Source: Candidatus Poribacteria bacterium
Lineage (GTDB): Bacteria; Poribacteria; WGA-4E; WGA-3G
Assembly (NCBI GenBank): GCA_965205015.1
Contig: OZ242029.1
Location: forward strand, 2,816,001-2,880,000
Length of the DNA stretch: 64,000 bases
Direction: 5' to 3'
The position numbers and the translations under genes were made by a program. The notes under the pieces were generated by a model that ran no database searches, was not told the origin of the DNA, and saw only the letters and a list, made by a program, of their open reading frames with translations. Shown here piece by piece: positions 6,011 to 28,434 of this stretch (position 1 is the first letter of the stretch; every line of letters starts with the position of its first letter).

Positions 6011-9000
6011 ATGATTATCGGAGGTCTCGTCATCAGGGTAATCAAACAAATCATAAAAATTCTGGTTCTGACTATTTGCTTGTGTGTGCTACCACATCCG
6101 AGTGGGATAGCCCAAAACCTCCCTAACGACGAAGCCACAGTTCTTGAATTTCCCACTTTTTCCGTCCTCCAGAAAACAGAGTCCGTTGAGTTGAAATCAG
6201 GAGAACAAGCATTCACGGTGAGGTATCCACCGATTCTGCCAAACAGCGAGCGGGTAACAGAAGCGGATGGGAAGGTGCTCGTGCGAGGTATCGACTATCA
6301 GATCGATTTCTATTTAGGCAAAATCACTGTAGGGGAAACCGGTCTTGTGCCTGCCCAAACGGATCTTAAGATAACCTACCGAACATTGCCCTTCGCGATT
6401 AAACAGGTCTATAAACGCGACCTTTACGGAACAGCGGACAGCGATCAGCGGTCAGCGGTCAGCGGTCAGCAAGAGAGTCGTCAGCAGTCAGAAACCGTCG
6501 ATGGTCAGCAAAGAGATTTTCTTACTGAAGATTTCCAACAGCCGACAACCGACAGTCAATTAGAAGTATCCGGCAGTCAGACATTCGGTATCTCGGTTGG
6601 CAGTGGACGGGGTGTGTCGCCGAATCAAGAACTCCGCGTCAATGTTGAGGGGAAAGCCTCTGAAAATATCACTGTCTTGGCACTGCTATCCGATCAGGAT
6701 CTGCCCATCCAACCCGAAGGCACAACCGAAAATATTCAAGACATCGATCAGAAATTGATTCGTATTGCGCATCCGAACATGAGGGGAACCTTAGGGGATT
6801 TTGAAGGCTCGCTCGGTGCATCGGAGTTTATTTTTTTTCCACGCGCATTGGAAGGGGTACAGGTTGAAGGCGATTTCAAGTGGGTGGACTTTCACTTCAT
6901 TCCAACTGCTATTCCGAAGGGTCAGTCTACGAGTTTAGTGCTTCGCGGTGAAGAAGGACGTAGTGAATATCGGCTCACAGTTGATGGGCGATACGTCATT
7001 GTGAAAGCGGGCAGTGAAATCGTCTGGCTGAACGGTGAAAGGATGCGGCGCGGCGAAAACAACGATTATATTATCCGTGAATATGGGGATCCAATTGTCG
7101 AGTTTAACAGCAAACATCTCATAACGAGCAACGATGTGATTCGGATCGATTTTGAATATATCCCGGAAGATCGGGCGTACCAACAGAATCTTTACGGATT
7201 CAGCAGCGTCTTCACACTGCCGGGTGAGCGTTTAACACTTGGGGCATCCTACGCCGTTGAAGCAGATCTCAGTCAACCCGAACAGACGCTCATCAAGTTT
7301 GAAGATGCGGAACTGGAGGCTCTTCGCCAAAACATCCTTAATCCGAAGGAAGATGAATCACCGCTCGTACCACCACAAAAGCATACTGTATGGGGGCTGG
7401 AGAGTCGTCTGAACATTACAGAACAAGCGTGGATTCAAGGCGAACTCGCCTATAGTAATCTTGATAAAAACACCTATTCCACTGTCGATCGGAAAGAGGT
7501 GAGTCAGGCATGGAAATTAATCGGTTACGCCGACTGGGACTTTGCGACATGGACCGACCAACTACGTCCTAAATTGACCACAAACCTTGACATACGCTCG
7601 ATGGACGCTGACTTCGTGCCGGTCGGTGCTTCAAGCGGCAACCGGACCCGTTCGCGTTACGAAACGCAATACGCCAAAGAGGGTTTTGATGATGCGTTCC
7701 TACTCGACGCTGCAAGCAGCCCACGAGGTTCCCAAGACGAGAGAACCATGAATTTCGACATCCGAATGATGCCGACAGATTGGTTAGCGGTTGACGCGGG
7801 GGTCGGTAGAAGCGAAGAGAGAGCCCCAGAGAGTCGTCAGTTACCAGTTGTAGGGGCGGGGTTACCCCGCCCTTACGGAGGAGATCTCGCTCAATCAGAT
7901 CCCTCTTTAACCGACACCCGACACCTGACAACTGATAACGATTCAACCATCCGCAACAATTTCAACTGGGGCGTCAACTTCAATCGACGTTCAGGCATGG
8001 GGCAGGTAAGTCGAACCTTCACACCTGTAGGCGGGCACTCCGGTTCCGGACTGCCTATAAGCACACCAGAGAGGAATCCGATAGGAGGGGAAGAAATACC
8101 CAAGCAAAAACACTCCGATTCCCGACAAAGCACATCTGCAGGATCGCGATTCCTGAAAAAGTTGCCGAATCTTCGCTGGGATGACTATCGTAGCAGTTCC
8201 CGGACGGAGGGTGAAGATTCAACAAGGACACAATCGCTACAGAAATCACGTCAAGAGGGAAATCTGTCGTATCCGCTCGGTCCGTTCAGAATTTTGGGAA
8301 CATTCGGGCGAGTGGCGTCGAACGAAGCGCGGAATGCGACGCTCAATCGAAAGCGGAACCGTGCAACCGGACGTATTGATCTTGCTGAATTCAAATGGGC
8401 ATCTTTGAACACCAGCTATGAGCTTGAGGAGGCTTTTGCAAAAGAACCCTTGCTCACTGTTGATGACGAGCCTATCGGTTTGTCGGATTGGCAGCGGAAC
8501 ACCACCGCACGGACTTGGAAGGTAGGTATCCTTTCACAGCAACAATCCTTTCTCAGCGGCGGGGTGAATCTGACGGCAAACATTGCGCGCCGAATGTTGA
8601 AAGCACACACCGATCTCGGGGCAAATACAACCACGCAACTCGCCGATATCAACCTCCAACTCACACCCCTCAGCCGGGCGATTGATATAGAAATCGCTTA
8701 TGAATTAGATAAAAAACTGACGAGTCAACGCCGCGAGGTCTATACCGACATCCATCCCCACACCGGCATTCTGCTCCAACCCGGTGAAGGATACTACGTA
8801 AAACTGGACGATCTACACTACGTAGAGGATCCAGAAGAAGGCACCTATATCAAGATCTATCAAAATGTGGGGGATAAACCGACAACAGCGGTAGATGCGG
8901 AATTCCGGGTCCGTTTTCAACCCCGACAGTTTTTCGCACGACGTGCCAGAGCCAGGCAACAGCAGCAACGCGACTCGATGTTGAAACGTGATAGTTTACG

Positions 9001-9922
9001 CCCGAATAGCCATCAGCAGTCAGGCGTCAGCGGTCAGCAAAAGAACCTCTTAACTGACGGTTTCCGACAGCCGACAGCCGACAGCCGGTTAGAGTGGTTT
9101 CTCAAGGCACTCAGAGGTCAAACCCGGTTATGGTTGACCGAAGAACAGGAGGTCGAGGACGCGGTATCGCTCTATCTGCTCCAAAGTCTACAAGGCTCAG
9201 AAACGCTTTTTGGGCGTTTGAATCAGCACCATCGATTTGAATTTTCGCCATCACCAGCGTTCAGTTTCGAGGTCAACCTTCGTGCTGGGGAGACGCTCAA
9301 TCGGCGGATTAATAACCAAGAACGCCACAGACGACATCGGACGTATGATGTAGGTCTCTCCGTGAACCCTACGCAACGCATGTCCTTCGGTGCGAACTGG
9401 GAACGACGCCGAGAAACTGAGAAATACAGTCAATTCCAAATTGAGGAGCTTACACAGGAAACCGAGACGATACCGAACAGGGGAGCCCTTCCCTCAACGC
9501 CTATCTCAGACCTGCGCCAATTTGAAGAGACGACTGAATTAAGCCTCCGGTATGAACTCAGCAGTTCCGTGCGGTGGAGCGGTATCGGAGGGTATAAACG
9601 GACGACTGACGAAGAGCGTCTCGACGAGGAGCCGGAAGCCAGAACGCGGACCTTCTTTTATGAAAACCGCGTCACGTATAGTCTCATCGGCAAGGGACGC
9701 CTCGATGTGAACTATAAACTCGGTTACGGCGAGAGTAAGGGGGGGATCCCCTTTGCGCAGTACACTTTCTACGAAGGCATTAGCCACGAAGTCCGCACAA
9801 CCGCGGATTACAGATTACGAAAGTTCACCGATCTCCTGTTTCGGCTCAATTATCGGTTGCTCTCCACAAAACAGCGGAAACCCGAGCACCGTCTGGAGAT
9901 GACGGTCAGTGCGGAACTTTAA
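6011..9922 (+). CDS. Large exported, probable outer-membrane beta-barrel protein (SprA-related hypothetical family)
   Basis: Signal peptide, N-terminal 'SDQDLPIQPEGTTENIQDID' motif, and alternating beta-strand patterns up to the C-terminus. Confidence 0.6.
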   Translation: MIIGGLVIRVIKQIIKILVLTICLCVLPHPSGIAQNLPNDEATVLEFPTFSVLQKTESVELKSGEQAFTVRYPPILPNSERVTEADGKVLVRGIDYQIDFYLGKITVGETGLVPAQTDLKITYRTLPFAIKQVYKRDLYGTADSDQRSAVSGQQESRQQSETVDGQQRDFLTEDFQQPTTDSQLEVSGSQTFGISVGSGRGVSPNQELRVNVEGKASENITVLALLSDQDLPIQPEGTTENIQDIDQKLIRIAHPNMRGTLGDFEGSLGASEFIFFPRALEGVQVEGDFKWVDFHFIPTAIPKGQSTSLVLRGEEGRSEYRLTVDGRYVIVKAGSEIVWLNGERMRRGENNDYIIREYGDPIVEFNSKHLITSNDVIRIDFEYIPEDRAYQQNLYGFSSVFTLPGERLTLGASYAVEADLSQPEQTLIKFEDAELEALRQNILNPKEDESPLVPPQKHTVWGLESRLNITEQAWIQGELAYSNLDKNTYSTVDRKEVSQAWKLIGYADWDFATWTDQLRPKLTTNLDIRSMDADFVPVGASSGNRTRSRYETQYAKEGFDDAFLLDAASSPRGSQDERTMNFDIRMMPTDWLAVDAGVGRSEERAPESRQLPVVGAGLPRPYGGDLAQSDPSLTDTRHLTTDNDSTIRNNFNWGVNFNRRSGMGQVSRTFTPVGGHSGSGLPISTPERNPIGGEEIPKQKHSDSRQSTSAGSRFLKKLPNLRWDDYRSSSRTEGEDSTRTQSLQKSRQEGNLSYPLGPFRILGTFGRVASNEARNATLNRKRNRATGRIDLAEFKWASLNTSYELEEAFAKEPLLTVDDEPIGLSDWQRNTTARTWKVGILSQQQSFLSGGVNLTANIARRMLKAHTDLGANTTTQLADINLQLTPLSRAIDIEIAYELDKKLTSQRREVYTDIHPHTGILLQPGEGYYVKLDDLHYVEDPEEGTYIKIYQNVGDKPTTAVDAEFRVRFQPRQFFARRARARQQQQRDSMLKRDSLRPNSHQQSGVSGQQKNLLTDGFRQPTADSRLEWFLKALRGQTRLWLTEEQEVEDAVSLYLLQSLQGSETLFGRLNQHHRFEFSPSPAFSFEVNLRAGETLNRRINNQERHRRHRTYDVGLSVNPTQRMSFGANWERRRETEKYSQFQIEELTQETETIPNRGALPSTPISDLRQFEETTELSLRYELSSSVRWSGIGGYKRTTDEERLDEEPEARTRTFFYENRVTYSLIGKGRLDVNYKLGYGESKGGIPFAQYTFYEGISHEVRTTADYRLRKFTDLLFRLNYRLLSTKQRKPEHRLEMTVSAEL

Positions 9923-12880: not shown

Positions 12881-12930
12881 GAATTCCCTCCGATTGTTCC
12901 ATTTTTCATGAATTCCCTCCGATCGTTCCA
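12873..12930. repeat. 29-bp tandem duplication spanning the RBS and start codon of the ECF-WD40 gene
   Basis: tttttcatgaattccctccgat(t/c)gttcca x2. Confidence 0.9.
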
Positions 12931-12933
12931 TAG

Positions 12934-12977
12934 TGACGCGACTTAGGGGTACAACTGGTGCATAATTCTGCAAAAAA
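12934..12977 (-). promoter_or_regulatory. ECF-type promoter copy 1 (upstream of ECF-WD40 gene)
   Basis: Minus strand TTTTTTGCAGAATTAT-GCACC-N17-GCGTCA. Confidence 0.7.
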
Positions 12978-15164: not shown

Positions 15165-15208
15165 TGACGCAATTTACTCCGTGATGGGGTGCATAGGTCC
15201 AGAAAAAA
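15165..15208 (-). promoter_or_regulatory. ECF-type promoter copy 2
   Basis: Minus strand GCACC(15192-15188)-N17-GCGTCA(15170-15165). Confidence 0.65.
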
Positions 15209-15275
15209 TGCAAAAATATTTTCTGCAATTCAAAGTATATAAACGATTCTGTTGGTATTTAGTATACTGGAAAAT

Positions 15276-15400
15276 TATAGTAAAACCCAAAAATAAGTGA
15301 ACATTCGTAGCACAAACTGTCCAGTTTGTGCAGGGGAGGCACGCAAACTAACAGTTTGCGCTACAATCGGGGTGCCCAAGTAATTATTGACTCTACTATA
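15276..15400. mobile_element. MITE-like element, copy D (inverted, different internal hairpins)
   Basis: TATAGTAAAACCC...CTCTACTATA. Internal GCACAAACT..AGTTTGTGC and CGCAAACT..AGTTTGCG hairpins. Confidence 0.7.
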
Positions 15401-15520
15401 AAACGTGGGACGTGCTGGGGGGTTTACCTTTTGTTAAATAAATGGTGAGAAAGATAACGCAATGAGAGACTACTGACGTAGCAGAGGTTGTGGAAGTTCA
15501 CTATGAATCCGTGTGCCGCA

Positions 15521-16852
15521 TTATCTCAATGTAGCGTCTATAGAGATTCTCGCGAGGAAAGAATTGACTTTCCCTTCTCCACTGAACGAATTACCGGTGG
15601 CACCTAACTTAAAGCGCGTGCCTTCATCAAAACGGTGCGTGATCCTTCCGCCCTTACCGGGTACAATCCCTGATGCTGCGGTGAGTATAACCTGAGGCAT
15701 GCCGTCTGTTGAGAATTCGCTGTCGCTTGCAAACAGGATGAACGCACCGGCAGCCTCGGCACTCCCCATCCAGAGATCAATCGTGAGCATACCACCATCT
15801 TTAAACGCCGTCGCATCAATCTCAACAACGGTGTAATCTTGAGTGCCTGCTGTCGGTGTTCGGAAAATATTCAAGATATCCTGTGAAGGTTCTTCATCGT
15901 TGAGCACGACGCTTTTTGCCTGTGTGGAAAGAAACCTCGGTGTGTATTCCGATTGATCTGCCTTCGGTGCAAATCCATCACCCTTACGCGGGGTCATAGA
16001 TTTACCAACTTGTGTCCGCACATTCGGTTTTGATGCAAGATCCAGGACAATAGGAGTGTCAATAAGTTCCACCGTCATCTCCGATGGGGCGGCAAAATCG
16101 TAGGGCTGTTGGAAACGTGTTAAGTACTGACTGCTTGCTCCAAATGCCATTAAAACGAGGACGAGGGTTGAGGTAGCGAGTGCCCACGGCACGAACGGCT
16201 TACCACTGGGGGGTGTGGTGGGTTGGATGCGGGAAATCTCTTGCATGATTTTCTCGGTGAGATTCGCCCGAATCTGAAAGCCTTCCAGTGCTTCTCGGAT
16301 CATCGGTTCTGCCTTCTTTAAGCGGAGTCGCGCACGACGAAGCCGACTCTTAACAGTGCTCGCCGATACCCCCAAAAAACGGCTGATCTCTTCACACGTC
16401 ATCTCTCCAAAATAGTGGAGTGTGACGACGGTGCGTTCACTTTCCTGCAACCGGGCGAGCAATCTTTGGACGATGCCGCGCTGCGCCTCTACCGCAGCTT
16501 TTTCCTGCTCCTCGGCAATGTATTGGGAATACGTCACTCCTTCTATTAGTTCGATGTCCGTATCTTCCAACGATTGCGTCGGCATCCGTTTTTTTCTCAG
16601 CCACGCTTGGCATTGACGTGCGGCGATTCTATAAAGCCATCCTGCAAAGCGACTCGGATCCTTCAACGTTTCCAGTTTCTTGTAGACTCGCAGAAAAGTG
16701 TCCTGTGTAATCTCTTCCGCGACGTGGAAATCGCCAACTTTCCGCCATGCGAGCGCGTGGACTGGCTTTTGGTATTTTTTCACCAACTTCGCAAAGGCGT
16801 TTTCATCGCCTGTGAGACTGCGTTGAATTAGTTCTACATCGTCGTTCTTCAT
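15521..16852 (-). CDS. ECF sigma factor - TM helix - extracytoplasmic 'domain X' fusion
   Basis: N-terminal ~280 aa paralogous to the ECF-WD40 protein. C-terminal ~120 aa homologous to the C-termini of the three SelN-like proteins. Confidence 0.9.
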   Translation of the reverse strand: MKNDDVELIQRSLTGDENAFAKLVKKYQKPVHALAWRKVGDFHVAEEITQDTFLRVYKKLETLKDPSRFAGWLYRIAARQCQAWLRKKRMPTQSLEDTDIELIEGVTYSQYIAEEQEKAAVEAQRGIVQRLLARLQESERTVVTLHYFGEMTCEEISRFLGVSASTVKSRLRRARLRLKKAEPMIREALEGFQIRANLTEKIMQEISRIQPTTPPSGKPFVPWALATSTLVLVLMAFGASSQYLTRFQQPYDFAAPSEMTVELIDTPIVLDLASKPNVRTQVGKSMTPRKGDGFAPKADQSEYTPRFLSTQAKSVVLNDEEPSQDILNIFRTPTAGTQDYTVVEIDATAFKDGGMLTIDLWMGSAEAAGAFILFASDSEFSTDGMPQVILTAASGIVPGKGGRITHRFDEGTRFKLGATGNSFSGEGKVNSFLARISIDATLR

Positions 16853-16960
16853 CTGTCCCCTCCAAAGAACTAAATTTGGAGAACCTTCAAGAATGATAAC
16901 GAGGCTGACAGGTTGGACGAAAATCCGTGGACATCCATCCAACCTGCTTATATCTTTGAA

Positions 16961-18946
16961 TCACTGGGCATCATAAATGAACCAGTTACCTTCCACTTTT
17001 CGCATCTTAACAGATACCTCCGAGGGATCTGCCATTGGCACTCTCAACCTGAAGTGGAATTCATCACCCACATACTCGCTGCCTAAGATCTCCATCTGAC
17101 GCAATATTTGACGCATCCGAGTACGCACATCCTCTGGCGCATCCTCAAAATCAACTTCAAATGTATGTCGGGCATCCCCTATAAGCATCGGATGTATTGT
17201 CTCTGCATCAAGGTTCTTAAATGCTTCCACGAAAGCGTTCATCACATCTTCCGCGGATTGATTTAAGTGCGCTGATGACACTTCTTTCCCATCCAATGCC
17301 TGATTCGGTTCAACAGAGATTTTCGCCACGAAGGCATTGACCTGCCCTTTCTTACTATGCCAATCACCGGTCGCCCCTAATTTAAAGTGATGCCCCCGGT
17401 CGAAAGGATAGATGATTTTCTTGGATTTACCCGGTGAGACTCCCCATGCCGAAGCAACCGCGTTCCGAGGTGCACCTTCTGTTGGGGGTTCGCTTTCGCC
17501 ATCAAACAGGTGGAACGAACCTGCAGCCTCTGCATGTCCGACGGAGATATTGATCGTAAGCACACCTCCATTTTCAAACGCCGTGGTATCAATTTTAATG
17601 ATAGTGTAATCTTGATAACCCGGTTCTGGTGTCCGAAAGATATTAAGGATCTCCTGTGAGGTTCGAACATCATTGAGTACAACCTTCAAACGACTCAATG
17701 CGGTATCCGAGTTGAGGGGCTCTGGTTCTGAAGTATCTTCACCGAATCCGGGAAGTTTTCCGTCTAAAGCTTCCTTGAGAAACGTTAGGTAACGTTGCCC
17801 CATGTTTGCTCCGAGAAGATCATTGACGGGCTGCCTGCCCATCAATTCAAGATCTGTTGAAAGAATCAAGGAATCTGACGGCGAACGCTTCTTCCACCCT
17901 TTCATGATTGCCTGTGCCAAAGGGGACTTTTTGTCGAATGGCTTGAATCCATGCTGGTGTCTCAATGCCATGAAAACTTTCTTATTAGCGGTGCGCTCCA
18001 ATTCGACATTCGACACCCAGGTATTGATAAAATTGTCATTCAAGAACTCAATGACTCGGTTGTTGGAGAGGACAACTGCCCTCAGGGCTTTACCGCTCCC
18101 TCAGCACGATTCATCCATCAATGGTCCATCTATAGAGATAGCGTGAATCGGCTTCTGTTGTGCGTGTGCCATCTCCAATACCTCATCTGGCGGCACCCAA
18201 TTAATTTGCTGTGATTTGTAGAAATTCGTTATCAGGGCACGTTCAGCGGTTTCTTGGGTAATCGCTTCTGCGAATTCGACGTTCTTCAGTAAATCTGGCC
18301 TTCCGGCACGAAGTTCCATTTGCGAACAGAAACCTGCATCTGTAATAGAGCTTCCGGGTCCGTATTTACTCCAGTTAACATCAAAGTTTACTGTGCCTTC
18401 AGGGACATACATCTTAAAGAAAGCGACCTTTTTTTGAATTCGATCAATTACAAGATGACCGGTAAACAGCGATGGAGTAAACCACCCATCCTTTAGTTTA
18501 AACTCCGCGTGAATCCGAAACACGATGTCGGCAAATGTATCGTTGTAAGCGCGCAGGCATGCCCACAAACCATAGGAATCGCCCGAGTTGATATGCATCT
18601 TCAAATTCGGATTGGGATGAAGTTGCCGTAGCAATTCTAATGCCCCGGTATTTTCAATCTGCCAGAGTTCGCCGATCGAAACCGCTTTGTCTGGAAGAAA
18701 GGCGCGGAAAACCGAGGCAGGATGCTGCTTCTCTGGTTCAGCAACGCGTAGATTTGCCAATGCCTCCCAATCTACATGGAAATTGGACAAGGTACTCACG
18801 ATTGGGGCGATGAAGCCTTTGACGGACATTTCAGATGCACCATCAAGATTAAGTGTAATTTTTTTATTCTGTGTCAAGTCCTCATTAGCGTTTAATTGTC
18901 CGCTTATCACAATCAGAGTGAGAAATCCAATCATTAGGGTTTTCAT
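16961..18946 (-). CDS. Selenoprotein N-like protein 1 (661 aa; Sec at TGA 18103-18101; signal peptide; domain X plus NTF2-like tail)
   Basis: ORFs 18101-19060 and 16961-18043 are in frame across a single TGA: GPLMDESC-U-GSGKALRAVVLSNNRVIEFLNDNFINTW. FRIHAEF motif present. AAGGAG RBS before ATG 18946. Confidence 0.85.
18068..18083 (-). promoter_or_regulatory. Candidate bacterial SECIS hairpin (SelN-like 1)
   Basis: GAGGGC-AGUU-GUCCUC, starting 18 nt after the UGA. Confidence 0.6.
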
Positions 18947-19144
18947 TTTTACTTCTCCTTGTAATAGAATAACATTACTACGTAAACAACGTCTATCCCA
19001 AAAGTTGTTGCTCGCGTAGATTCTCATCTTTATGGTTTGGAGCGTTGAGGTCGAGCGCACACCTTAATCCTTAAAATTATCCAAACTTTAGTAATTTTAA
19101 TAACGGCAATTTTATCTTTCAGTCGGTTTGCCACGCGCATTCCT

Positions 19145-19954
19145 TTAGAGCCCTCTTAGGAGGGATACCCACCGTTCCCATACGGCTTTAGTGGCAGTTT
19201 TCTGTGCTTCGTTGGCATCTTCTGTCATACCGCGCATCAGGAAAGCGTGACCGACCCCTTCATAGATGACGGGTTCGTAGGTGATGTTTGCGGCATCCGC
19301 CGCGGCTTTAGTGGCATCAATTGTGGCATTGATACGATTGTCGTTCTCGGCGTAGAAGCCATACACCGGTGCTGATATTTTGGGGATATCTTCCGTTGAT
19401 GGGGCAGGACCGTAAAACACAAAACTAGCGGCTATTGTGGTGGAATGAACAGCGTAACTGAACGTTTGACCACCTCCCCAGCAGAATCCGGAGACTGCAA
19501 CCTTTTCATTGGTTTCAGGTAGATTTCGGACATATTTTTCGATGGCATCCAGGTCGGATGTGACTTGGGAGGGTGGGAGTTCGCTGATAGCCCATGGTAC
19601 GTCGTCCCTTGAGTCGAAACTTTCTGTGCCGCCACCGTCAGGTCCCATGCCGGAAAGCATATCTGGACAAATTGCGACAAACCCTTCGGCAGCGAGCGTG
19701 TCTGCGACGAGTCGTATCCAATTGGTGAGTCCGCGACCCTGGTGGATGACGATGATAGCCGTTGCGGGTTCTTTCACCGTTGGATAAACGATAAACGCAT
19801 TGACGATACGCGCATCGGAGGTCGTAACTTTCACCCTTTCGCTGTGTCGCGGGGATACGTCAAGTTGAGTTTTTATACTATCAGCCTCTGCATCGGCAAT
19901 GAACAATAAACCGGTGACAATGATACCTAACATAAGCGTGTGGGCTATCTGCAT
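19145..19954 (-). CDS. Dienelactone hydrolase family protein (secreted)
   Basis: GFCWGG nucleophile motif, YEGVGHAF and a signal peptide. Confidence 0.9.
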   Translation of the reverse strand: MQIAHTLMLGIIVTGLLFIADAEADSIKTQLDVSPRHSERVKVTTSDARIVNAFIVYPTVKEPATAIIVIHQGRGLTNWIRLVADTLAAEGFVAICPDMLSGMGPDGGGTESFDSRDDVPWAISELPPSQVTSDLDAIEKYVRNLPETNEKVAVSGFCWGGGQTFSYAVHSTTIAASFVFYGPAPSTEDIPKISAPVYGFYAENDNRINATIDATKAAADAANITYEPVIYEGVGHAFLMRGMTEDANEAQKTATKAVWERWVSLLRGL

Positions 19955-20208
19955 AGTTTTTTCCTTATTTTTCCTTTGTACTGTGAATAATGGACTCTAC
20001 TACCTTTTAGATATTCTTTAGGACTTACGCGATAATTTAATATCTCAGCATTAAGCCCATTCCCCGATTTATCAATAATCGTCTGATCTGTAACCTCATC
20101 AAACGTCAGGTAAAAAACGAGTCCCTCATCCAAACTCGCGTTGGCGGAAATCGTCCCCAGGAGAATAAGGGGTCCCCAAAAAGCTGCACCGATAAATCCT
20201 CGTATCAT
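19945..20208 (-). pseudogene. Truncated LamG-family gene (N-terminal ~57 aa only)
   Basis: Matches the N-terminus of 24264-25082 (LDEGLVFYLTFD..IIDKSGNGLNAEIL), then similarity ends. Confidence 0.75.
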
Positions 20209-20280
20209 GTTTTCTTTTCCTCCTATAGAGTCATTTGAGTTTTCTAAAGCTTGTCACACAAATCTCGTGTCGATATATAA

Positions 20281-20324
20281 TGACGCGGAGGATTGGAAAA
20301 ACGGTTGCTTAATTCTGCAAAAAA
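20281..20324 (-). promoter_or_regulatory. ECF-type promoter copy 3
   Basis: TTTTTTGCAGAATTAA-GCAAC-N17-GCGTCATTATA. Confidence 0.75.
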
Positions 20325-20401
20325 TAGAGAAAATATGATACGGGAAATGGATTTGGTTTGTTCATAGACTAAATCTGAATATGAAGCGCGTTGGATCCGC
20401 G

Positions 20402-22063
20402 TTAATTTTCGTCCTGCCCTTTCGACGCAGACTCCACGGATATTGTCGCGAGAAAAGCATTGGTACCTCCCTTCTTACTGAACCCATCACCGGTAGCTCC
20501 CAACCGAAAGGATTGACCTCGCTCAAAGATATGCGTGATGCTCTCTGTTCCACCGGATGGAATACTCCACGCTGAAGCGAGGGCATTCTGAGGTACCCCC
20601 TCTGTTGGCAGTTTCCTGTTGCCAGCAAACAAATCAAACGAACCGGCAGCTTCAGCGTACCCGACGGAAACATCAATCGTAAGCACACCCCCATTTTCAA
20701 ACGCTGTCGCATCAATTTCAACGACAGTATAATCCCGAAAGCCCGCCTCTGGTGTCCGAAAAATATTCAGTACCTCCTGTGAGGTCCGAACATCGTTGAG
20801 TACAACTTTCAAGTTACTCAATACAGTATCTGAGTTGAGGGATTCTGGTTCTGAAGTATCTTCACCCAATCCTGGCTGTTTTCCCGCTAAGGATTCTTGG
20901 AGAAACGTTAAGTAATGCCTTGTTGTGTTTCCTCCAACGAGATGAAGTTTATTGGCGGGTTGCCTACCCATCACTTCAAACTGTGGCGATATGATCAAAC
21001 AATCCACTGGAGAATGTTTTTTCCAGCCTTTCATGATTGCCTGTGCTAAGGCATGGGTTGTATCAAATGTTTTGGATTCTCGCTCGCGTCTCTTCGCAAT
21101 CGGGTCTCGTAAACTCGGTACCCGTCCCAATTCGCAATTCGGCACCCATGTGTTGACGAAATTTTCGTTCAAGTATTTTATGATCTGATCGTCGGAGAGG
21201 ACAACTGCCCTCAAGGCTTTGCCACTCCCTCAGCACGATTCATCAGCAAGCGGTCCCATTATTGAGAGGACGTGAACCGGCTTCTCTTGTGCTGGTGCCA
21301 TTTTCAACGCATCTTCCAAAGAAACCCAGTTAATTTCCTGCGATTTGTAGAAACGCAATATCAGTTTACGTTCAGCCGCTTCTTGAGTGATGGATTCTAT
21401 AAACTCGGTGTCTGATACAATTTCTTGGATCTCAGCATGAAGTTCTATTTTTGGACAAAAACCGACATCTATAGTGTTAGTGCTGTTTCGTCCAACATCA
21501 AAATTCAGTATGCCTTCAGGGACGTACATCTTGAAGGCAGTAACCTTTTCCTTAATTCGATCAATAACAAGATACCCAGCGAATTGAGACGGAGTAAATC
21601 GACCATCTCTTAGGATGAATTCTGCATGGATACGGAACACAATTTCAGCAAATCTATCATTGTACGCGCGCAAAGATGCCCACAAGCCGCGAGAATCCCC
21701 TGAATTTATGCTAATATCCAGATTTGGCTTCGGATGAAGTTGTCGCAATAATTCCAGCGCACTTCCTTCCTCGATCTGCCAGAGATCCCCAACAGAAACC
21801 GCTTCGGATGGCAGAAAAGCCCGAAAAACCGAGGTAGGATACCGCTTCTCGGGTTCAGCAACCCGTAGATTCGCCAATTCATCCCACTCCACATGAAAGT
21901 TATATTGCGTGTATTCAATCGGGGCAATGACGCCTTTCACTAACACTGCAGATGTACCATCAAGGTTAAGTGTGATTTTTTTCTTCTCTGTCAAGTCTTC
22001 ATTGGCGTTTAATTGTCCATTTATCATCACCAGAATGAGAAGCCCAATCGTTAAAGTTTTCAT
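20402..22063 (-). CDS. Selenoprotein N-like protein 2 (553 aa; Sec at TGA 21232-21230; signal peptide; domain X)
   Basis: ORFs 21230-22063 and 20402-21214 are in frame across the TGA: GPLADESC-U-GSGKALRAVVLSDDQIIKYLNENFVNTW. Confidence 0.85.
21197..21212 (-). promoter_or_regulatory. Candidate bacterial SECIS hairpin (SelN-like 2)
   Basis: GAGGGC-AGUU-GUCCUC at +18 from the UGA. Confidence 0.6.
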
Positions 22064-22207
22064 TTTACAAATTCCTTAAAATTAACTACGGAAAATACGA
22101 TGTCTAAGTATCCATCTTACAAGAATTCGTTGTTCGCGTAGTATTACTATCAATATACAATAACTCGGGTTATATAAAGTAAAGCATTCTCACTTGCCAG
22201 CTACTCG

Positions 22208-23029
22208 CTAAGGGGTAACCGTCCTCTTTTTGACATCCGCCCAAGTCGTTGCGACTTTATCACTTGGTGAAACAGCGAGGAAATCCCCTACCATTGCCTG
22301 TTTAATTTCCCCATCGCTGAGTGCACGTTGCCAGACAGCGGTTTCATCAATAGAGCCGTTAGCGAATGCGTACTGCAATCTATTTTTTGCGCATCCGATC
22401 CGGAGTTTCGCGTTATTACCCCCAAAGAAATTGAATGTCTTTTTTTCCGAACCTATGACTTTACCGTCTAAATAAATCTTCACGGTTTTTCCGTCGTAGC
22501 TGCCAGCAACGTGGTACCATTTTCGGACACCCATTTTGTGTGAAACTGCGAATTCATGCCGGTCGGTAATCCCGCGTTTATCTCGCGACCCTAAAAACAA
22601 TACAATCTCTGGTCCGTCACCGATATCGGAGCTACCTATACCGTAGGTTCCAGACCAACCGACACCCGAATGGCACCCTTTATCAAGCCAATGCAACATC
22701 CTTTTACCTTTCCATGTTTCTTGATAGTAGATCCATGTCATCATTGTTATTTCGTTTGTAATTTTCAGTTTCTCTTGAGAAGGGATACTGACGCAATCCT
22801 GACCATCATCTGTGATATGAATGGCATTCCCGTATTTGCCCTTCACAATTTGGGTATTCTCGTGGAGTTCTGCGTCAAGACCATTCTTGGATTTGTCAAC
22901 AATTGTCTGATCTTTAACGTTATCAAACGTCAGATAAAAAACCAATTCCTCATCAAGTCCTGCGTTGGTAGAAATTGTCATTAACAGCATGACAGCACCC
23001 GAAAAAGCTGCAATAAATAACCGCGTCAC
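22208..23029 (-). CDS. Secreted LamG/concanavalin-like domain protein with C-terminal TTW-motif tail
   Basis: WYHVAGSYDG..IYLDG, IDETAVWQRALS, tail AVSPSDKVATTWADVK. Confidence 0.88.
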   Translation of the reverse strand: MTRLFIAAFSGAVMLLMTISTNAGLDEELVFYLTFDNVKDQTIVDKSKNGLDAELHENTQIVKGKYGNAIHITDDGQDCVSIPSQEKLKITNEITMMTWIYYQETWKGKRMLHWLDKGCHSGVGWSGTYGIGSSDIGDGPEIVLFLGSRDKRGITDRHEFAVSHKMGVRKWYHVAGSYDGKTVKIYLDGKVIGSEKKTFNFFGGNNAKLRIGCAKNRLQYAFANGSIDETAVWQRALSDGEIKQAMVGDFLAVSPSDKVATTWADVKKRTVTP

Positions 23030-23100
23030 GTTTTCTTTCCTCCTGTAGCGTCTGTTAAGTTTTCCAAAATTTGTTCCATAGACATGGTTTTGATATATAA

Positions 23101-23145
23101 TGACGCGGGTAACAGGCAGAACGGTTGCTTAATTCTGCAAAAAAA
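23101..23145 (-). promoter_or_regulatory. ECF-type promoter copy 4
   Basis: TTTTTTGCAGAATTAA-GCAAC-N17-GCGTCATTATA. Confidence 0.75.
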
Positions 23146-23198
23146 GAACAAAATGTGATACACAGCGCAGCAAACGCGCATAACACAGCAGTTTCATA

Positions 23199-24221
23199 CT
23201 ATTTCTCTTTTACTTTTCCCCATATTGTGCTGAGCAGTTGGGGTTGCGGTGAGACAGGCAACACATATACAGGGTCGAACCAATCCCCTCCAAAATTCGC
23301 CTTAAAAACCCGTCCAATATGTGTCAACTGTGTCCGAGTGTCACTGGGGATATCAAGTTTGAAAATGTGTAGACGTCCCTTAATTTTCTGTGTATAAAGG
23401 ACCTCTTCCCCATCTGGCGACAGCACTGGATATTGTGCTCTGGGCCCGGCTTCATTGAGAAGTTCTCGGAGATCCGTCCCGTCGCGGTTTACAATATAGA
23501 TTGTTTCTTTATCCAGCCATACGGGTGGGAAACGATCCCCTGGCAAAAGGCGCGGGAACGGGTTCTGATTCCAAGAAAAAGCGAGTTTGCTCCCCGTAGT
23601 CGACCAAAACGGTTGATTTTGCCAAGCCGTTGCCGTCCTCGGTAGGAGGTGTTTTTGTCTTCGTGTGTGGAGGTCAATTAGGGCAATTCGGCAGGTATCT
23701 CCAATATAAGACACATACGCTATTTTCGTCCCATCGGGTGACCACGTCGGATATCTGCCCTCCACGACACGCGCCTCTTTTTGTTCACCCAAGGTTGCAA
23801 CGTGGATATGGAACCTGACACCGTCCCAATTCAGGTGTGTGTAAGCGATCTGTTTGCCATCGGGTGACCACGTCGGAGAATCCCTATAAGATTTTCTTTT
23901 TCTTGTGAACACGGGACGGACATTGGAGCCGCTGGGATCCATCAGATATAAGTCCCGGATGCCGCCCTCGCGATCGGAAACGAAAAGAATCTGTTCACCA
24001 GTCGGGGACCAGACAGGGTTTAGGTCATTTGCGCGATGTTGCGTTAAGTTTATCTGTTCACTCCCGTCCGGATTCATCATGTAGACCTCGTAATTGCCGT
24101 CTCGTGAAGAGGTGAACAGAATTTTGGCGGTTGTGGGTGCTGTTGCGAAAACGAAGTTAACATTTACGTCCAGTATCAACACGTTCAATATAGCAAAAAC
24201 GAACAACCGTATTGTTTTCAT
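23199..24221 (-). CDS. TolB-like PD40-repeat protein with C-terminal TTW-like tail
   Basis: Repeated P.WSPDG units, tail PVSPQPQLLSTIWGKVK. Confidence 0.85.
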   Translation of the reverse strand: MKTIRLFVFAILNVLILDVNVNFVFATAPTTAKILFTSSRDGNYEVYMMNPDGSEQINLTQHRANDLNPVWSPTGEQILFVSDREGGIRDLYLMDPSGSNVRPVFTRKRKSYRDSPTWSPDGKQIAYTHLNWDGVRFHIHVATLGEQKEARVVEGRYPTWSPDGTKIAYVSYIGDTCRIALIDLHTRRQKHLLPRTATAWQNQPFWSTTGSKLAFSWNQNPFPRLLPGDRFPPVWLDKETIYIVNRDGTDLRELLNEAGPRAQYPVLSPDGEEVLYTQKIKGRLHIFKLDIPSDTRTQLTHIGRVFKANFGGDWFDPVYVLPVSPQPQLLSTIWGKVKEK

Positions 24222-24263
24222 TTTATGTGCCTTTATGAGGGATTCTGATTTTGTAGGGAGCCG

Positions 24264-25082
24264 TTAGGGAGCGACCGCTCTTCTTTTCATATCCGCCCAA
24301 GTCGTCGCGGCTTTATCGCTCGGCGAAATAGCGAGCATGTTTCCTGTCATCGCTTGTTTGATTTCATCATCACTGAGGGCGCGTTGCCACACCGCAGCTT
24401 CATCAATAGAGCCGTTCGTGAATGTAAGATGGGGTACGTCTTTTGCACATCCGATCCGAACGTCTGCTTCGTTGTCCCCAAAGAAATCGAATTTTTTCTT
24501 TTCTTTTGCTATGACTTTACCATCTACATAGATTTTCATGGTTTCGCCATCGTAACTTCCGACAACATGATGCCATTTTTTTTCGTCCATTTCATGCGGA
24601 GTTCTGAACTCCTGTCGATCCCACTTCCCTTCTATGTGTGATCCCAAAAACAAAAAGATTTCTGGTCCGTTACCGGCATCAGTACCAGCAATACCATAAC
24701 AGTGCGCCCAACCAACCGGAACAACGAAATGACAGTCTTTTTCCAGCCAATGCGCCTTCTCGTTGTTCCATGTTTCTGCAGAATAAATCCATGCCATCAT
24801 TGTTATCTCACCGATAACTTTCAATTTCTCTTGGGCAGGGATATTGACGCAATCTCCGCTTTGACCTTTAAGGCGAATTGCATCTCCATATTTACCCTTG
24901 ACAATATCAACACGCTCAAGTATTTCTGCGTCAAGACCGTTGCCAGATTCATCAATAATCGTCTGATTTTTAACGTTATCAAACGTCAGATAAAAAACGA
25001 GGTCTTCATCCAAACCCGCGTTGGCAAAGGTCACCAACAACGTAACGACACTCAAAAAAGCAGCAATAAATGCCCGTAACAT
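24264..25082 (-). CDS. Secreted LamG domain protein with TTW tail (paralog of 22208-23029)
   Basis: WHHVVGSYDG, IDEAAVWQRALS, tail AISPSDKAATTWADMK. Confidence 0.88.
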   Translation of the reverse strand: MLRAFIAAFLSVVTLLVTFANAGLDEDLVFYLTFDNVKNQTIIDESGNGLDAEILERVDIVKGKYGDAIRLKGQSGDCVNIPAQEKLKVIGEITMMAWIYSAETWNNEKAHWLEKDCHFVVPVGWAHCYGIAGTDAGNGPEIFLFLGSHIEGKWDRQEFRTPHEMDEKKWHHVVGSYDGETMKIYVDGKVIAKEKKKFDFFGDNEADVRIGCAKDVPHLTFTNGSIDEAAVWQRALSDDEIKQAMTGNMLAISPSDKAATTWADMKRRAVAP

Positions 25083-25154
25083 GTTTTCTTTTCCTCCTAT
25101 AGCGTCATTTGAATCTTCCAAAATTTGTCACACAAATCTCGTGTCGATATATAA

Positions 25155-25198
25155 TGACGCGGAGGATCGGAAAAACGGTTGCCTAATTCTGCAAAAAA
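25155..25198 (-). promoter_or_regulatory. ECF-type promoter copy 5
   Basis: TTTTTTGCAGAATTAG-GCAAC-N17-GCGTCATTATA. Confidence 0.75.
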
Positions 25199-25339
25199 TT
25201 AGCAAATTTAGACATGGCTGTTGATAATTAGGGGTAAGGACGATCCATTGTCTTATGAATGAATTTCGATTTTTGAGTTTGCTTTACAGAAACGTAGATA
25301 GATAGGCGCGCGTTGACAAATAGGTTAAAATGATATGGG

Positions 25340-26875
25340 TTATTTTTCAAATGGGGGGACGACAGAGACACGCGCCAAAAAAGCATTGGAAGTGCTCTTT
25401 TGGTTGTTTGCCCTTGTAGCGACCAACTTAAAATGCTGTTTGCCCTCCCTGAAGTGGTGAAAGATATGTCCTGTATTGCCGGGCAAAACGTTCCATGTCC
25501 CAGTCAGTGCTTTATCTGTCGTTTTGTTTGTCAGAATTTTCGCATCGGCATCAAACAATTCAAACGTTCCTGCTGCCGCCCCTGCTCCGACCTGTATCTC
25601 AATGTGGAGCACGCCGCGTTCAAAAGGGGTGGTATCAATCTCCACGACCGTGTAATCTGGCGTATCGGTGTCGGATGTGTTGAAAACATGCAAAATCTCC
25701 ATCAACTCCGTCCCTAAGCTGATCGGGTTTCGATCTAATTTTGAGGCGTTCCCTACACGAGCGCGTTTTCCTTCAAACGCATCCACGGAATGCTGCAGCA
25801 CCGATAGGTATGCTTGCGCGTGATTCCTGTAAGGCAGTGCCATCTCCGGTTGATGCATAATGACTTCCGCGTCGGGGGTCAGTGCCAGAATATCCACAGA
25901 GTCGGTGTAATGGTGTTTCATCTTTTGAGCGACGAGACTCACCCCTTCGCCTTCCGCGCCACCTATCAGTTCTGGCAATTCCCGGAGGAGCACCCACGTA
26001 TTGACGAACTTTTCGTTGAGCGTTTTTATGACTTCAGGATTGGAGAGCGGACCCGCCCTCAAATTTTTGCCATTCGCTCAGCACGATTCATCATCTAAAC
26101 ACCCCCAGACAAGGATGGCATGGATCGGCCGATGGGTCGCTTTTGCCTGTGCGACTGCCTCATCAATCGGCAGCCAGTTGATCTCCGCGAACTTGTAGAA
26201 CTTCAGTTCCAATGCACGATGTGCTTCTTCCGTTGTGATAGTAGCGTCCCACGTGATCTCGTTTTGGTCGGTCTCATCTATAGCGAGGAGTTCCATACGC
26301 GGCACGAAAACCATATCCGCTCCCCCAGAGGCGTTGAGGTCAACGTTCGTGTTGCGCGCCGGCAAGGCTAATGAAAACGCGCGAATCGTTCCGCTTTCTA
26401 CATTCACCACTACTTTCCCTGCAAATTGTGATGGAATAAACCTGGCTTCGGACTCCCACTCATCGTTTTTTTCTTGCCACTCCTGATGAGCAGCGGAGTT
26501 CAACGCGAATTCTGCATGAATTCGGAAAGCAATTTCTGCGTAGTCTGAGGCACGTGCCCGTAAGCAGGCAAAGGCACCTTCCTCACCGTACCCTAAATCA
26601 GCCGTTGCTCCCGGATGAAACTGACGCAGGAAGGAAACAACACTGTTCGCATCAAGTTTATAGACATCCCCTACCGTCACAGCAGATGGTGGCAGGAACG
26701 CAGTGAAAGCATCAGTCCGGTATTCCTTAACAGGTTGGTTTGGTGACAGATCGAAAAGTTCAACGTGTTCTGGCGATGCCTTGTGCATACGAAAGGTAGA
26801 ATCCGCAATCGGTTCCCAATGTGCATGCACCTGTAGACGTGTTGAACTATTTAGGACATTACAAAGGTTTATCAC
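25340..26875 (-). CDS. Selenoprotein N-like protein 3 (511 aa; Sec at TGA 26080-26078; domain X)
   Basis: ORFs 26078-26875 and 25340-26062 are in frame across the TGA: HAILVWGCLDDESC-U-ANGKNLRAGPLSNPEVIKTLNEKFVNTWVLLREL. GGAGG RBS before the GTG start. Confidence 0.85.
26043..26060 (-). promoter_or_regulatory. Candidate bacterial SECIS hairpin (SelN-like 3)
   Basis: GAGGGCG-GGUC-CGCUCUC at +18 from the UGA. Confidence 0.6.
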
Positions 26876-26994
26876 TATGTGCCTCCATTAATTTAAGATG
26901 CCTTTACAGAAAACTGTTGGATAAATTGGAGTATTCAGTCTTACTATTCATACGCATTTTCGGATGCACCTTCAGAAAGAATAGGAAAGCATTC

Positions 26995-27022
26995 TTGACA
27001 AAATAAAAAACCTACATAGAAT
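26995..27022 (+). promoter_or_regulatory. Sigma70-type promoter for the GH32 gene
   Basis: TTGACA-N16-TAGAAT. Confidence 0.55.
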
Positions 27023-27087
27023 GGTATGCAAAACAGCGGAAATCGCTCGTATCTCTTTGCAACGTTCAAAACGGAAAGGAACAGTCA

Positions 27088-28434
27088 ATGATTCAGACGG
27101 CTTACAAGGAAGCGTATCGTCCACAGTTCCACTTTACACCCAAGACCAATTGGACCAACGATCCGAACGGCTTAATCCATTACAAAGGTGAGTACCATCT
27201 CTTCTTCCAACACAACCCATTCGGTATCGACTGGGGCAACATGACGTGGGGACACGCCGTTAGCACAGACCTCGTCCATTGGAAACAACTCCCGCATGCC
27301 CTCCATCCAGATGAACTCGGCACAATCTTCTCGGGTTCTGGTGTCGTGGACTGGAAAAATACGGGGGGGTTTCAGACTGCGGACGAGGCGGTACTCGTCA
27401 ATTTTTATACGTCTGCAGGCAGCCACGCCCCGAAAGAGGTTCCGTTCACACAAAGCATCGCCTACAGCAACGATCGCGGACGGAGTTGGACAAAATATGA
27501 AGGGAATCCCGTGATTGAGCATATCGTGAGGGATAACCGCGACCCGAAAGTCATTTGGCACGAACCGACGCAAAAGTGGGTCATGGCACTTTACCTCGAC
27601 CAGAATGACTATGCCCTATTCGGTTCGACAAATCTCAAGGAGTGGACACGGTTATCCGACCTGCAGATTCCCGATACAGAATGCCCGGATATCTTTGAGC
27701 TTCCCGTTGACGGTGATCCGGATAATACCAAATGGGTTTTCTGGGGCGCAGCGGGAAAATATTACGTCGGTAGTTTCGATGGAACGACCTTTACACCCGA
27801 AGATGACGCACAGCGCGCCGACTACGGTGCCAATTTCTATGCGGCGCAAACGTGGAGCGATGTGCCAGAATTCGATGGCAGACGCATCCAAATTGCTTGG
27901 ATGAGTGGCAGTAAACCACCGGATATGCCTTTTAATCAACAGATGAGCTTCCCGTGTGAGTTGACCCTTCGGACGACTTCAGAGGGGATACGGCTACACC
28001 GAGAACCGGTTGAAGAGATCGAAAACATCCACACATATACGCACGCGTGGAGCGACCTTTCACTCAAACCGGGTGAAGACCCGCTTGCAGGATTGACAGG
28101 CGAACTGTTCGATATCCGCGCTGAAATAGTCTTGAACGATGCGACTGCCGTTGGTTTCAAAATTCGCGGGCAGGATGTCCGTTACGACGTTGGATCTCAG
28201 CAGCTCACGTTCTTAGAAAGAAGCGGACCCCTCGCGCCACGAAATGGGAAGATCCGCTTGCAAATTTTAGTCGATCGTATCTCTATTGAAGCATTCGGAA
28301 ACGATGGTAATCTCTCAATGACGTCCTATTTCCTGCCAGATCTGGACAACGCTGACATCGGAATCTATGCAGAGGGAAGCACAGCGACGTTCGTATCCCT
28401 GAAAGTACACGAGTTAAGGTCTTCGTGGGTGTAA
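27088..28434 (+). CDS. GH32 beta-fructofuranosidase/levanase (cytoplasmic)
   Basis: Catalytic motifs WTNDPNG, RDP and ECP, plus FSGS. Confidence 0.93.
   Translation: MIQTAYKEAYRPQFHFTPKTNWTNDPNGLIHYKGEYHLFFQHNPFGIDWGNMTWGHAVSTDLVHWKQLPHALHPDELGTIFSGSGVVDWKNTGGFQTADEAVLVNFYTSAGSHAPKEVPFTQSIAYSNDRGRSWTKYEGNPVIEHIVRDNRDPKVIWHEPTQKWVMALYLDQNDYALFGSTNLKEWTRLSDLQIPDTECPDIFELPVDGDPDNTKWVFWGAAGKYYVGSFDGTTFTPEDDAQRADYGANFYAAQTWSDVPEFDGRRIQIAWMSGSKPPDMPFNQQMSFPCELTLRTTSEGIRLHREPVEEIENIHTYTHAWSDLSLKPGEDPLAGLTGELFDIRAEIVLNDATAVGFKIRGQDVRYDVGSQQLTFLERSGPLAPRNGKIRLQILVDRISIEAFGNDGNLSMTSYFLPDLDNADIGIYAEGSTATFVSLKVHELRSSWV

Follow-up and report, generated by a model that had tools for sequence, protein, structure and literature searches.

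Among the extracytoplasmic function (ECF) sigma factors treated in one account of fused extensions are IutY (ECF243), an ECF with a fused membrane extension that is released by Prc and RseP, SCO4117 (ECF52), which carries a carbohydrate-binding domain, and ECF57, which carries WD40 repeats (PMC8999054). ECFs are usually autoregulated and encoded together with their targets (PMC7826278). Human selenoprotein N (SelN) is described as a type II membrane protein of 590 aa that contains an EF-hand, with selenocysteine (Sec) at about residue 458-462 and about 130 aa after it; its substrate is still unclear, and its loss leads to human myopathies (PMC12839072). In this study, a stretch of 64,000 nucleotides from a Candidatus Poribacteria bacterium (contig OZ242029.1, positions 2,816,001 to 2,880,000; hereafter the window) was analyzed, in which an ECF sigma factor with a predicted membrane anchor, ECF-X, ends in a domain of about 125 aa, designated domain X, that is also present on three SelN-like proteins encoded nearby. 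These genes probably form a conserved operon and regulon, with ECF-X as the regulator and X as its input domain. The literature searched contained nothing on bacterial SelN-like proteins, on domain X, or on a link between ECFs and selenoproteins.

A profile built from the four copies of X, applied to a six-frame translation of the window, located them at 15521-15931, 17297-17704, 20417-20827, and 25343-25744, all on the minus strand, which also encodes all genes of the region. No fifth copy was found in the window, and a reversed-sequence control gave 0 matches; the scan is circular for its four source copies and is informative only on the absence of a fifth. By pairwise BLASTP, the X of ECF-X and that of SelN-like 1 share 54% identity over 125 aa (E 9e-50), while the weakest pair, ECF-X and SelN-like 3, shares 42% over 115 aa (E 3e-25). 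The four-way alignment contains 34 invariant columns. This agrees with a first-pass annotation of the window, which had reported one motif string on the ECF and the three SelN-like proteins: its coordinates were right, the alignment reproduced the string, and the four copies were borne out by both the profile scan and the independent BLASTP comparison (E 3e-25 to 9e-50). Its placement of X at the C-terminus holds for ECF-X, SelN-like 2, and SelN-like 3 and fails for SelN-like 1, where 113 aa follow X. The ECF gene does lie directly downstream of SelN-like 1, starting 108 nt past its stop. X was also correctly described as unrecognized, since in the four window proteins it had no Pfam-A match at E<=1 and no NCBIfam match, and its profile gave only chance-level matches among all PDB sequences (E 0.19 or worse). 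A Protein Atlas search with the ECF copy of X reached a best score of 0.86, below the threshold for a lead.

ECF-X is identical over 443 aa to a database protein (P0005). It matched the Pfam families Sigma70_r2 (E 1.4e-15), Sigma70_r4_2 (E 1.7e-15), and Sigma70_ECF (E 2.1e-07), and scored 98 bits against the NCBIfam sigma70-ECF superfamily (cutoff 42.9), while no Pfam match to sigma region 3 was obtained. It is therefore an ECF (group 4) sigma factor, with sigma2 and sigma4 and without sigma3. A single hydrophobic stretch follows sigma4, and about 200 aa, including X, come after it. As judged from the sequence, ECF-X fits the ECFs with a fused membrane-spanning extension, with a predicted transmembrane segment after sigma4 and then a putative extracytoplasmic domain; X is placed on the outer side because the sigma domain must be cytoplasmic. 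Identities of 68-85% were observed for the X of ECF-X across 18 species, and 55 alignment columns were invariant.

The gene pair of SelN-like-X and ECF-X is conserved. A contig scan with the ECF copy of X as the query, using one genome per species, identified 17 further loci (71-88% identity), and their named sources are all Candidatus Poribacteria. In every one of them, as in the window, the gene immediately preceding ECF-X, on the same strand, encodes a SelN-like-X protein. Other members of the neighborhood change: the number of SelN-like paralogues per locus ranges from one to four, and genes of the LamG, PD40, dienelactone hydrolase (DLH), and GH32 families vary. The spacer between the paired genes measures about 40-110 nt and holds hairpins. 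In the window, the spacer (16853-16960) folds with a minimum free energy of -36.9 kcal/mol (z -4.0, 0/200 shuffles as good), and its second hairpin pairs CUCCAAA with the UUUGGAGG ribosome-binding site of ECF-X. Such sequestration points to restrained translation of the sigma factor.

A common sequence, AGAATTAGGCAACCGTTTT-N11-CGCGTCAYTATATAT, was found in the upstream regions of many SelN-like genes. AAC at -35 and CGT at -10 are hallmarks of ECF promoters, and the core of this motif, GCAACC-N17-CGTC, has that form. When up to 14 mismatches of 45 were allowed, the 17 loci and the window yielded 39 instances, all on the coding strand and 3-215 nt ahead of the next open reading frame (ORF). The next gene encoded a LamG protein in 14 cases, a SelN-like protein in 12, a PD40 protein in seven, a paralogous ECF in four (as a divergent variant of the motif), and a small ORF in two. 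The motif occurs within about 3.5 kb upstream of ECF-X, in the same direction, in 11 of the 17 loci and in the window. The search that yielded the window instance before LamG_a returned a single match when <=3 mismatches were allowed, and 100 shuffles gave 0. SelN-like 3 is without an ECF-type motif upstream and has another conserved upstream sequence in its place. Predicted sigma-70 promoters in 15300-27100 were at chance level (18 found, 17.1 expected), as were terminators (15 found, 13.3 expected). Additionally, a variant, GCA[AC]C...AAATTGCGTC, was observed between ECF-X and a downstream DUF3352-like gene in three loci (L004:10718, L005:10596, and L013:10598) and in the window (about 15192-15218, minus strand), and the DUF3352-like gene may also be under an ECF-type promoter.

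Since ECFs usually autoregulate and adjoin their targets, the simplest reading is that ECF-X drives this regulon and itself. ECF-X would be the last gene of an operon with SelN-like-X that starts, in most genomes, at the GCAACC-N17-CGTC promoter, and the further SelN-like-X, LamG, and PD40 genes preceded by the same promoter would constitute its regulon. X would act as an autonomous binding or input module, flexibly linked to a wide variety of secreted or membrane proteins. The Sec-containing SelN-like oxidoreductases of Poribacteria, an expanded set, would carry it as a C-terminal module, and a copy of the same stock would form the outer end of a single-pass ECF without a separate anti-sigma factor. 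There, X may sense the same or a related target as the one to which it brings the selenoenzymes, or it may sense the X-bearing proteins themselves. Regulated proteolysis would then free or activate the sigma domain, as it does in other ECFs whose fused extensions span the membrane. Taken together, ECF-X as an autoregulated regulator of a secreted-protein regulon, with X as its sensor and proteolytic release or activation as its switch, is a reading that is held with moderate confidence. The domain with its family and fold class, the conserved gene pair, the promoter motif, and the Sec codons are observations, whereas the identity of the sigma factor that reads the motif, the binding partner of X, and the passage of the signal across the membrane belong to the interpretation.

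The first-pass annotation had proposed a one-component signaling module, a candidate new redox-sensing system, in which the sensor of the sigma factor and the selenoenzymes bind one ligand or dock homotypically; this proposal is partly supported. Its signaling part is favored by the association in 17/17 loci, by the common promoter motif, and by a fusion of an ECF to the SelN-like core described below, whereas its claim of novelty does not extend to the class of regulator, as membrane-anchored ECFs are among those described in PMC8999054. The same annotation would have abandoned the module if X were a known, promiscuous Pfam domain with no association of ECF and SelN-like genes elsewhere. X did prove promiscuous, but it is not a Pfam domain and the association was not lost. 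The profile survey, fold prediction, and synteny comparison that it proposed returned, respectively, 327 representatives with many unrelated partners, a predicted beta jelly roll (pLDDT 82), and SelN-like-X beside ECF-X in every locus.

Several observations count against this reading of ECF-X. All 18 genomes come from a single phylum, and part of the conserved synteny is thus inheritance. The motif was not found near ECF-X in six of the 17 loci (L009-L012, L014, and L016), which form one clade and of which L010 is only 3 kb long. Paralogous ECFs that lie nearby have sigma domains about 65% identical to that of ECF-X and similar motifs, so the motif is not assignable to ECF-X with certainty. 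No Pfam match at E<=1 to an anti-sigma domain (ZAS/zf-HC2, FecR, or RskA) was obtained in the linker of about 40 aa between sigma4 and the membrane. SelN-like 3 has no signal-like start and X occurs on possibly cytoplasmic TIR and TPR proteins, which means that X is not strictly extracytoplasmic. The residues of the ECF copy add to these points. Conservation reaches >=75% of members in 26 family columns. Within these, the replacements S63A, D65I, and W115S/A, at positions that are family-conserved at >=79%, are present in all 18 ECF-X orthologues, and P74 is mostly S or A. The adjacent SelN copies, in contrast, keep the family residues S63/D65/P74/W115 in 15-17 of 18 cases, and a second ECF-X family (446 aa, 50% identical over the full length) keeps all of them. 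The two copies of X may for this reason not bind the same thing. The ECF copy, conserved but altered, may recognize a target that is related but not identical.

A phylogeny of 61 Poribacterial copies of X and 10 outgroups placed the 18 ECF copies in one clade (SH-aLRT, the Shimodaira-Hasegawa-like approximate likelihood ratio test, 99), which grouped with the X of Poribacterial SelN-like proteins against six copies from other architectures (SH-aLRT 98). A separate capture of X by the two ECF-X families, suggested by a quick tree, was dropped, as a single clade was not rejected (approximately unbiased (AU) test, p 0.31). A nesting of ECF X inside SelN X was likewise dropped, as a SelN X clade excluding ECF X was not rejected (AU p 0.50). 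These tests reject neither topology, and this too counts against the reading above, the direction of transfer being one that we infer. A transfer from SelN-like proteins to the ECF appears parsimonious, because fusions of SelN-like and X occur in distant sequences (one colinear example, 26% identity, E 9e-17), Cys forms of SelN-like proteins without X exist, and ECF-X was seen only with Poribacteria-like sequences.

When TGA is read as Sec, three adjacent pairs of ORFs merge into SelN-like proteins of 661, 553, and 511 aa, each with one in-frame TGA at an ESC-U-G or ESC-U-A junction. The pattern (S/A)C-TGA-(G/A) was found in 43/43 SelN-like genes of the 17 loci and the window, with homology continuing past the TGA. 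A rule on the distance between TGA and hairpin applies to the bacterial selenocysteine insertion sequence (SECIS). In SelN-like 1 a hairpin, GAGGGCAGTTGTCCTC, starts 17 nt after the TGA; it recurs unchanged at 21197-21212 and as a variant at 26043-26060, and the nucleotide sequence is almost invariant over 31 aligned SelN-like genes, which fits a bacterial SECIS. A tRNA scan of the window found neither a tRNA gene nor, specifically, one for tRNA-Sec. SelN-like 3 starts with MINLCNVLNSS..., without a hydrophobic N-terminus, and this start is kept in six loci; the protein may be cytoplasmic.

The name "SelN-like" is based on the SCUG motif and on weak thioredoxin-like matches (E 0.036). A search of PDB sequences with SelN-like 2 gave 0 matches at E<=1, and the name of animal SELENON was absent among the best 120 of the 192 matches of the SelN-like core search. 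The full-length AlphaFold2 (AF2) model of SelN-like 2 (39-sequence alignment) had a predicted local distance difference test (pLDDT) of 85.2 and a predicted template modeling score (pTM) of 0.66. Every Foldseek match of this model fell on the X part, and the core is therefore without a solved relative. The linker before X (aa 403-417) had a pLDDT below 50, and X is therefore best described as a separate module on a flexible tether. The 113-aa tail of SelN-like 1 had no Pfam match; it was also observed on the ECF-adjacent SelN-like gene in 6/17 loci. Among database proteins, P0310-P0319 are full-length SelN-like-X proteins of 533-606 aa that read DEACG[AG], with Gly instead of Sec, and P0129 is a full-length SelN-like-X protein reading SCWG, in which the Sec TGA was apparently rendered as Trp by the gene caller.

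Searched against 1.84 billion cluster representatives, the four-copy profile identified 327 representatives of X at E<=1e-3 (208 at <=1e-10), each standing for a cluster at 50% identity. Architectures were examined for the best 150. Another Pfam family (E<=1e-4) was present in 29 of these, and its best stretch never overlapped X. The partners were Peptidase_M56/BlaR1 (nine), caspase C14 (six), Lcl_C (two), and TPR (two, one of them also with Lcl_C), and, once each, ECF sigma, S9 with PD40, S8 (weak), TIR, CsgG/FlgO, VHL, TonB_C, WG repeats, dockerin, Flg_new_2, and CENP-C_C. In the nine BlaR1/M56 signal transducers, X follows the membrane domain; a query with the X from one M56 protein gave 11 matches. 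Many other representatives are short proteins or C-terminal halves that result from splitting SelN-like ORFs at the TGA. Two copies of X in one chain were found in 9/150 representatives. Among 138 full instances, X ends <=15 aa from the C-terminus in 98, is internal in 25, and is N-terminal in 15. A crude hydrophobicity count found an N-terminal hydrophobic stretch in 65 of the 102 assessable proteins, with 27 set aside as fragments or as having an N-terminal X. The range of X outside Poribacteria is judged solely by diverse amino-acid composition and partner domains. Database proteins P0185, P0174, and P0250, outside Poribacteria, join X to TIR and caspase/CHAT-type domains, a combination that is reminiscent of conflict systems.

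Curated models do not cover this family. For 30 diverse members, matches were 0/30 in Pfam at E<=10 and 0/30 in NCBIfam at E<=1. X is a real and promiscuous family, mostly C-terminal, yet unnamed and without a curated model. In its AF2 model (nine strands, pLDDT 82, pTM 0.80, four-sequence alignment) X is a predicted beta jelly roll, a fold class of binding modules, which by itself names no ligand. Its Foldseek neighbors in the PDB were PliG, TMED1 and p24 GOLD domains, the collagen-binding domains of ColG/ColH, PPC, CBM6, the C-terminal domain of Tk-SP, and the claudin-binding domain of an enterotoxin (TM scores 0.5-0.69 normalized by target, 6-21% identity, E 8e-07 to 1e-05, probability 1.00). 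A distant kinship with PPC, suspected from the motif pattern and the Foldseek matches, was dropped in view of the 0/30 profile matches at E<=10.

The most serious competitor of the regulatory reading, although unlikely, is that X is a general C-terminal sorting, anchoring, or stabilizing module, that local duplication in a domain-shuffling cluster left the ECF copy as a by-product, and that ECF-X senses something unrelated to the SelN-like proteins. Many unrelated architectures with a mostly C-terminal X would be expected of such a module, and domain swapping is indeed common, as paralogues on the ECF scaffold carry WD40, BNR/Sortilin-like, Big_5, and SelN-like modules. Neither NCBIfam in general nor the type IX secretion system (T9SS) type model TIGR04183, which we take to be part of that library, supports a sorting function, as no sorting-domain model matched the SelN-like proteins or the 30 X members at E<=1. 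Poribacterial repeat proteins have been reported with C-terminal sorting-type domains (PMC3909097). A by-product would scarcely account for a SelN-X/ECF-X adjacency that persists in all loci while neighbors change, or for the conservation of the ECF copy across 18 species, and the internal and N-terminal positions of X (25 and 15 of 138), together with the tail of SelN-like 1, do not suit a C-terminal signal.

It is also improbable that the X of a secreted SelN-like protein docks onto the X of ECF-X and so reports the amount or redox state of the selenoenzyme. The two copies are closest relatives within a large family, their genes are always adjacent, and the chains with two X domains indicate that X-X proximity does occur; however, conserved surface-type residues that are retained by the SelN copy have been replaced in the ECF copy, and the nearest jelly-roll fold classes, going by the names of the Foldseek matches, mostly bind non-self ligands.

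The scaffold of ECF-X is shared by other sigma factors. Its juxtamembrane motif recurs in the ECF-WD40 paralogue of the window, in five ECF paralogues of the other loci, which carry BNR/Sortilin-like propellers or a Big_5 domain at the C-terminus, and in database protein P0418. The latter, found in the SelN-like core search, is a 690-aa ECF in which the same scaffold is joined to a SelN-like core (SCCG) without X; it is 43% identical to SelN-like 3 (E 8e-100). A TGA-containing relative, 64% identical to its SelN-like part, lies at a contig edge (L014:4-1026), directly upstream of the SelN-X cluster. As both X and the SelN-like core have been joined to this scaffold, the sigma and enzyme families are linked independently of X. 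A tentative extension of the regulatory reading is that Poribacteria graft pieces of selenoenzymes, either X or the Sec/Cys core, onto a common ECF-transmembrane scaffold, such that each sigma factor would sense the extracellular target or state of an enzyme by way of a paralogue of one of its domains and would adjust the transcription of that enzyme family. Least probable, and very doubtful, is a sentinel model, in which the X of ECF-X serves as a decoy. It would suffer whatever damage befalls the X-bearing enzymes, be it proteolysis, oxidation, or the action of a host or phage factor, and once it is lost, intramembrane cleavage would follow and the regulon would be resupplied. In its favor, the sensor modules are paralogous to parts of the regulon products (X, or the SelN-like core in P0418), and proteolytic activation is the known route for ECFs with fused extensions (PMC8999054). 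Against it, the model is inferential throughout, the ECF-X operon showed no protease gene, and the diverged ECF copy would be an imperfect mimic.

The features of the window are collected in Table 1. The LamG remnant looks like a decayed paralogue. Outside the cluster, a 1303-aa ORF at 6011-9922 on the plus strand had no Pfam family at E<=1e-3.

Table 1. Positions of the genes, domains, and sequence elements in the window.
Feature	Position	Strand	Remarks
ECF-WD40 paralogue, 980 aa	9938..12880	-	Same transmembrane and juxtamembrane scaffold; WD40 propeller instead of X
Variant motif	12925-12969	-	Before ECF-WD40 paralogue
ECF-X gene, 443 aa	15521..16852	-	sigma2 nt 16586-16786; sigma4 nt 16319-16474; X at C-terminus
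Domain X, ECF copy	15521..15931	-	C-terminus; AF2 model pLDDT 82
Juxtamembrane motif RFQQPYDF..SEMTVELID.P..L....KP.VRTQ	16010..16117	-	Common to other modular ECF paralogues
Single putative transmembrane stretch of ECF-X, 26 aa (aa 219-244)	16121..16198	-	Hydrophobicity read from sequence
Spacer SelN-like 1 / ECF-X	16853..16960	-	14-bp hairpin and second hairpin
SelN-like 1	16961..18946	-	Sec codon 18101-18103; X ~17297-17710; signal-peptide-like N-terminus; 113-aa tail 16964-17302
Hairpin GAGGGCAGTTGTCCTC	18068..18083	-	Starts 17 nt after SelN-like 1 TGA; candidate bacterial SECIS
DLH-family gene	19145..19954	-	Pfam DLH E 7.5e-40; between promoter motif and SelN-like 1
LamG remnant, 87 aa	19945-20208	-	Directly after full promoter motif; overlaps DLH gene start
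ECF-type motif AGAATTAAGCAACCGTTTT-N11-CGCGTCATTATATATC	20272..20316	-	Nearest upstream of LamG remnant - DLH - SelN-like 1 - ECF-X
SelN-like 2	20402..22063	-	Sec codon 21230-21232; X ~20417-20836; signal-peptide-like N-terminus
LamG_a, secreted LamG (Laminin_G_3) protein	22208..23029	-	First gene after motif 23092-23136
ECF-type motif	23092..23136	-	Before LamG_a, then SelN-like 2
PD40/TolB-like beta-propeller protein	23199..24221	-	Pfam PD40 E 1.2e-29
LamG_b, second secreted LamG protein	24264..25121	-	Motif 25146-25190 precedes
ECF-type motif	25146-25190	-	Before LamG_b
SelN-like 3	25340..26875	-	Sec codon 26078-26080 (SC-U-A); X 25343-25744

The design of this locus is one in which the sensor of a sigma factor is a paralogue of a domain on the proteins that it probably controls. 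If the grafting of selenoenzyme pieces is real, this would be the first description of a regulatory circuit for SelN-like selenoproteins of bacteria, and X would be a new ligand-binding input domain that is also used by BlaR1-type sensors. If the bacterial proteins are true relatives of SelN, their operons, regulator, and targeting domain would provide testable handles on the substrates of this enzyme class. Because the organisms are sponge symbionts that have not been cultured, such tests would have to use heterologous systems. The size of the X family (327 clusters at 50% identity) also makes it deserving of a curated model.

Compared with known systems, the SelN-like proteins resemble animal SELENON in having Sec in SC-U-G inside a thioredoxin-like region (PMC12839072). 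SELENON is described there as type II with an EF-hand; among the bacterial proteins, by contrast, a short N-terminus resembling a signal peptide is present in SelN-like 1 and 2 but absent from SelN-like 3, and no EF-hand Pfam match was obtained. About 275 aa follow Sec in the bacterial proteins, the last 125 being X, whereas the roughly 130 aa after Sec reported for human SelN leave, by length alone, no room for X (PMC12839072). X itself resembles the PPC/collagen-binding, CBM6, GOLD, and PliG modules in its size, its predicted all-beta jelly-roll fold, and its terminal position on secreted enzymes, and differs from them in sequence (6-21% identity; 0/30 Pfam matches at E<=10). The M56 transducers of the BlaR1/MecR1 type also have an extracytoplasmic C-terminal input domain, and the nine X representatives of this kind are so built. 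Their output, unlike that of ECF-X, is a zinc protease acting on a repressor, and such proteins are absent from the window.

The closest parallels are IutY/ECF243, SCO4117/ECF52, and ECF57, with which ECF-X has in common sigma2-sigma4, one predicted transmembrane stretch, a putative extracytoplasmic C-terminal domain, and no separate anti-sigma gene, while the ECF-WD40 paralogue of the window carries WD40 repeats like those of ECF57 (PMC8999054). ECF-X differs from these known ECFs with fused extensions in that Pfam matches revealed neither a zinc-finger nor a FecR-type anti-sigma domain in it, and in that its outer module is unmodeled and is also found on the enzymes of its own operon. A membrane-anchored ECF with a fused domain is already established, and ECF-X is a new variant of such regulators.

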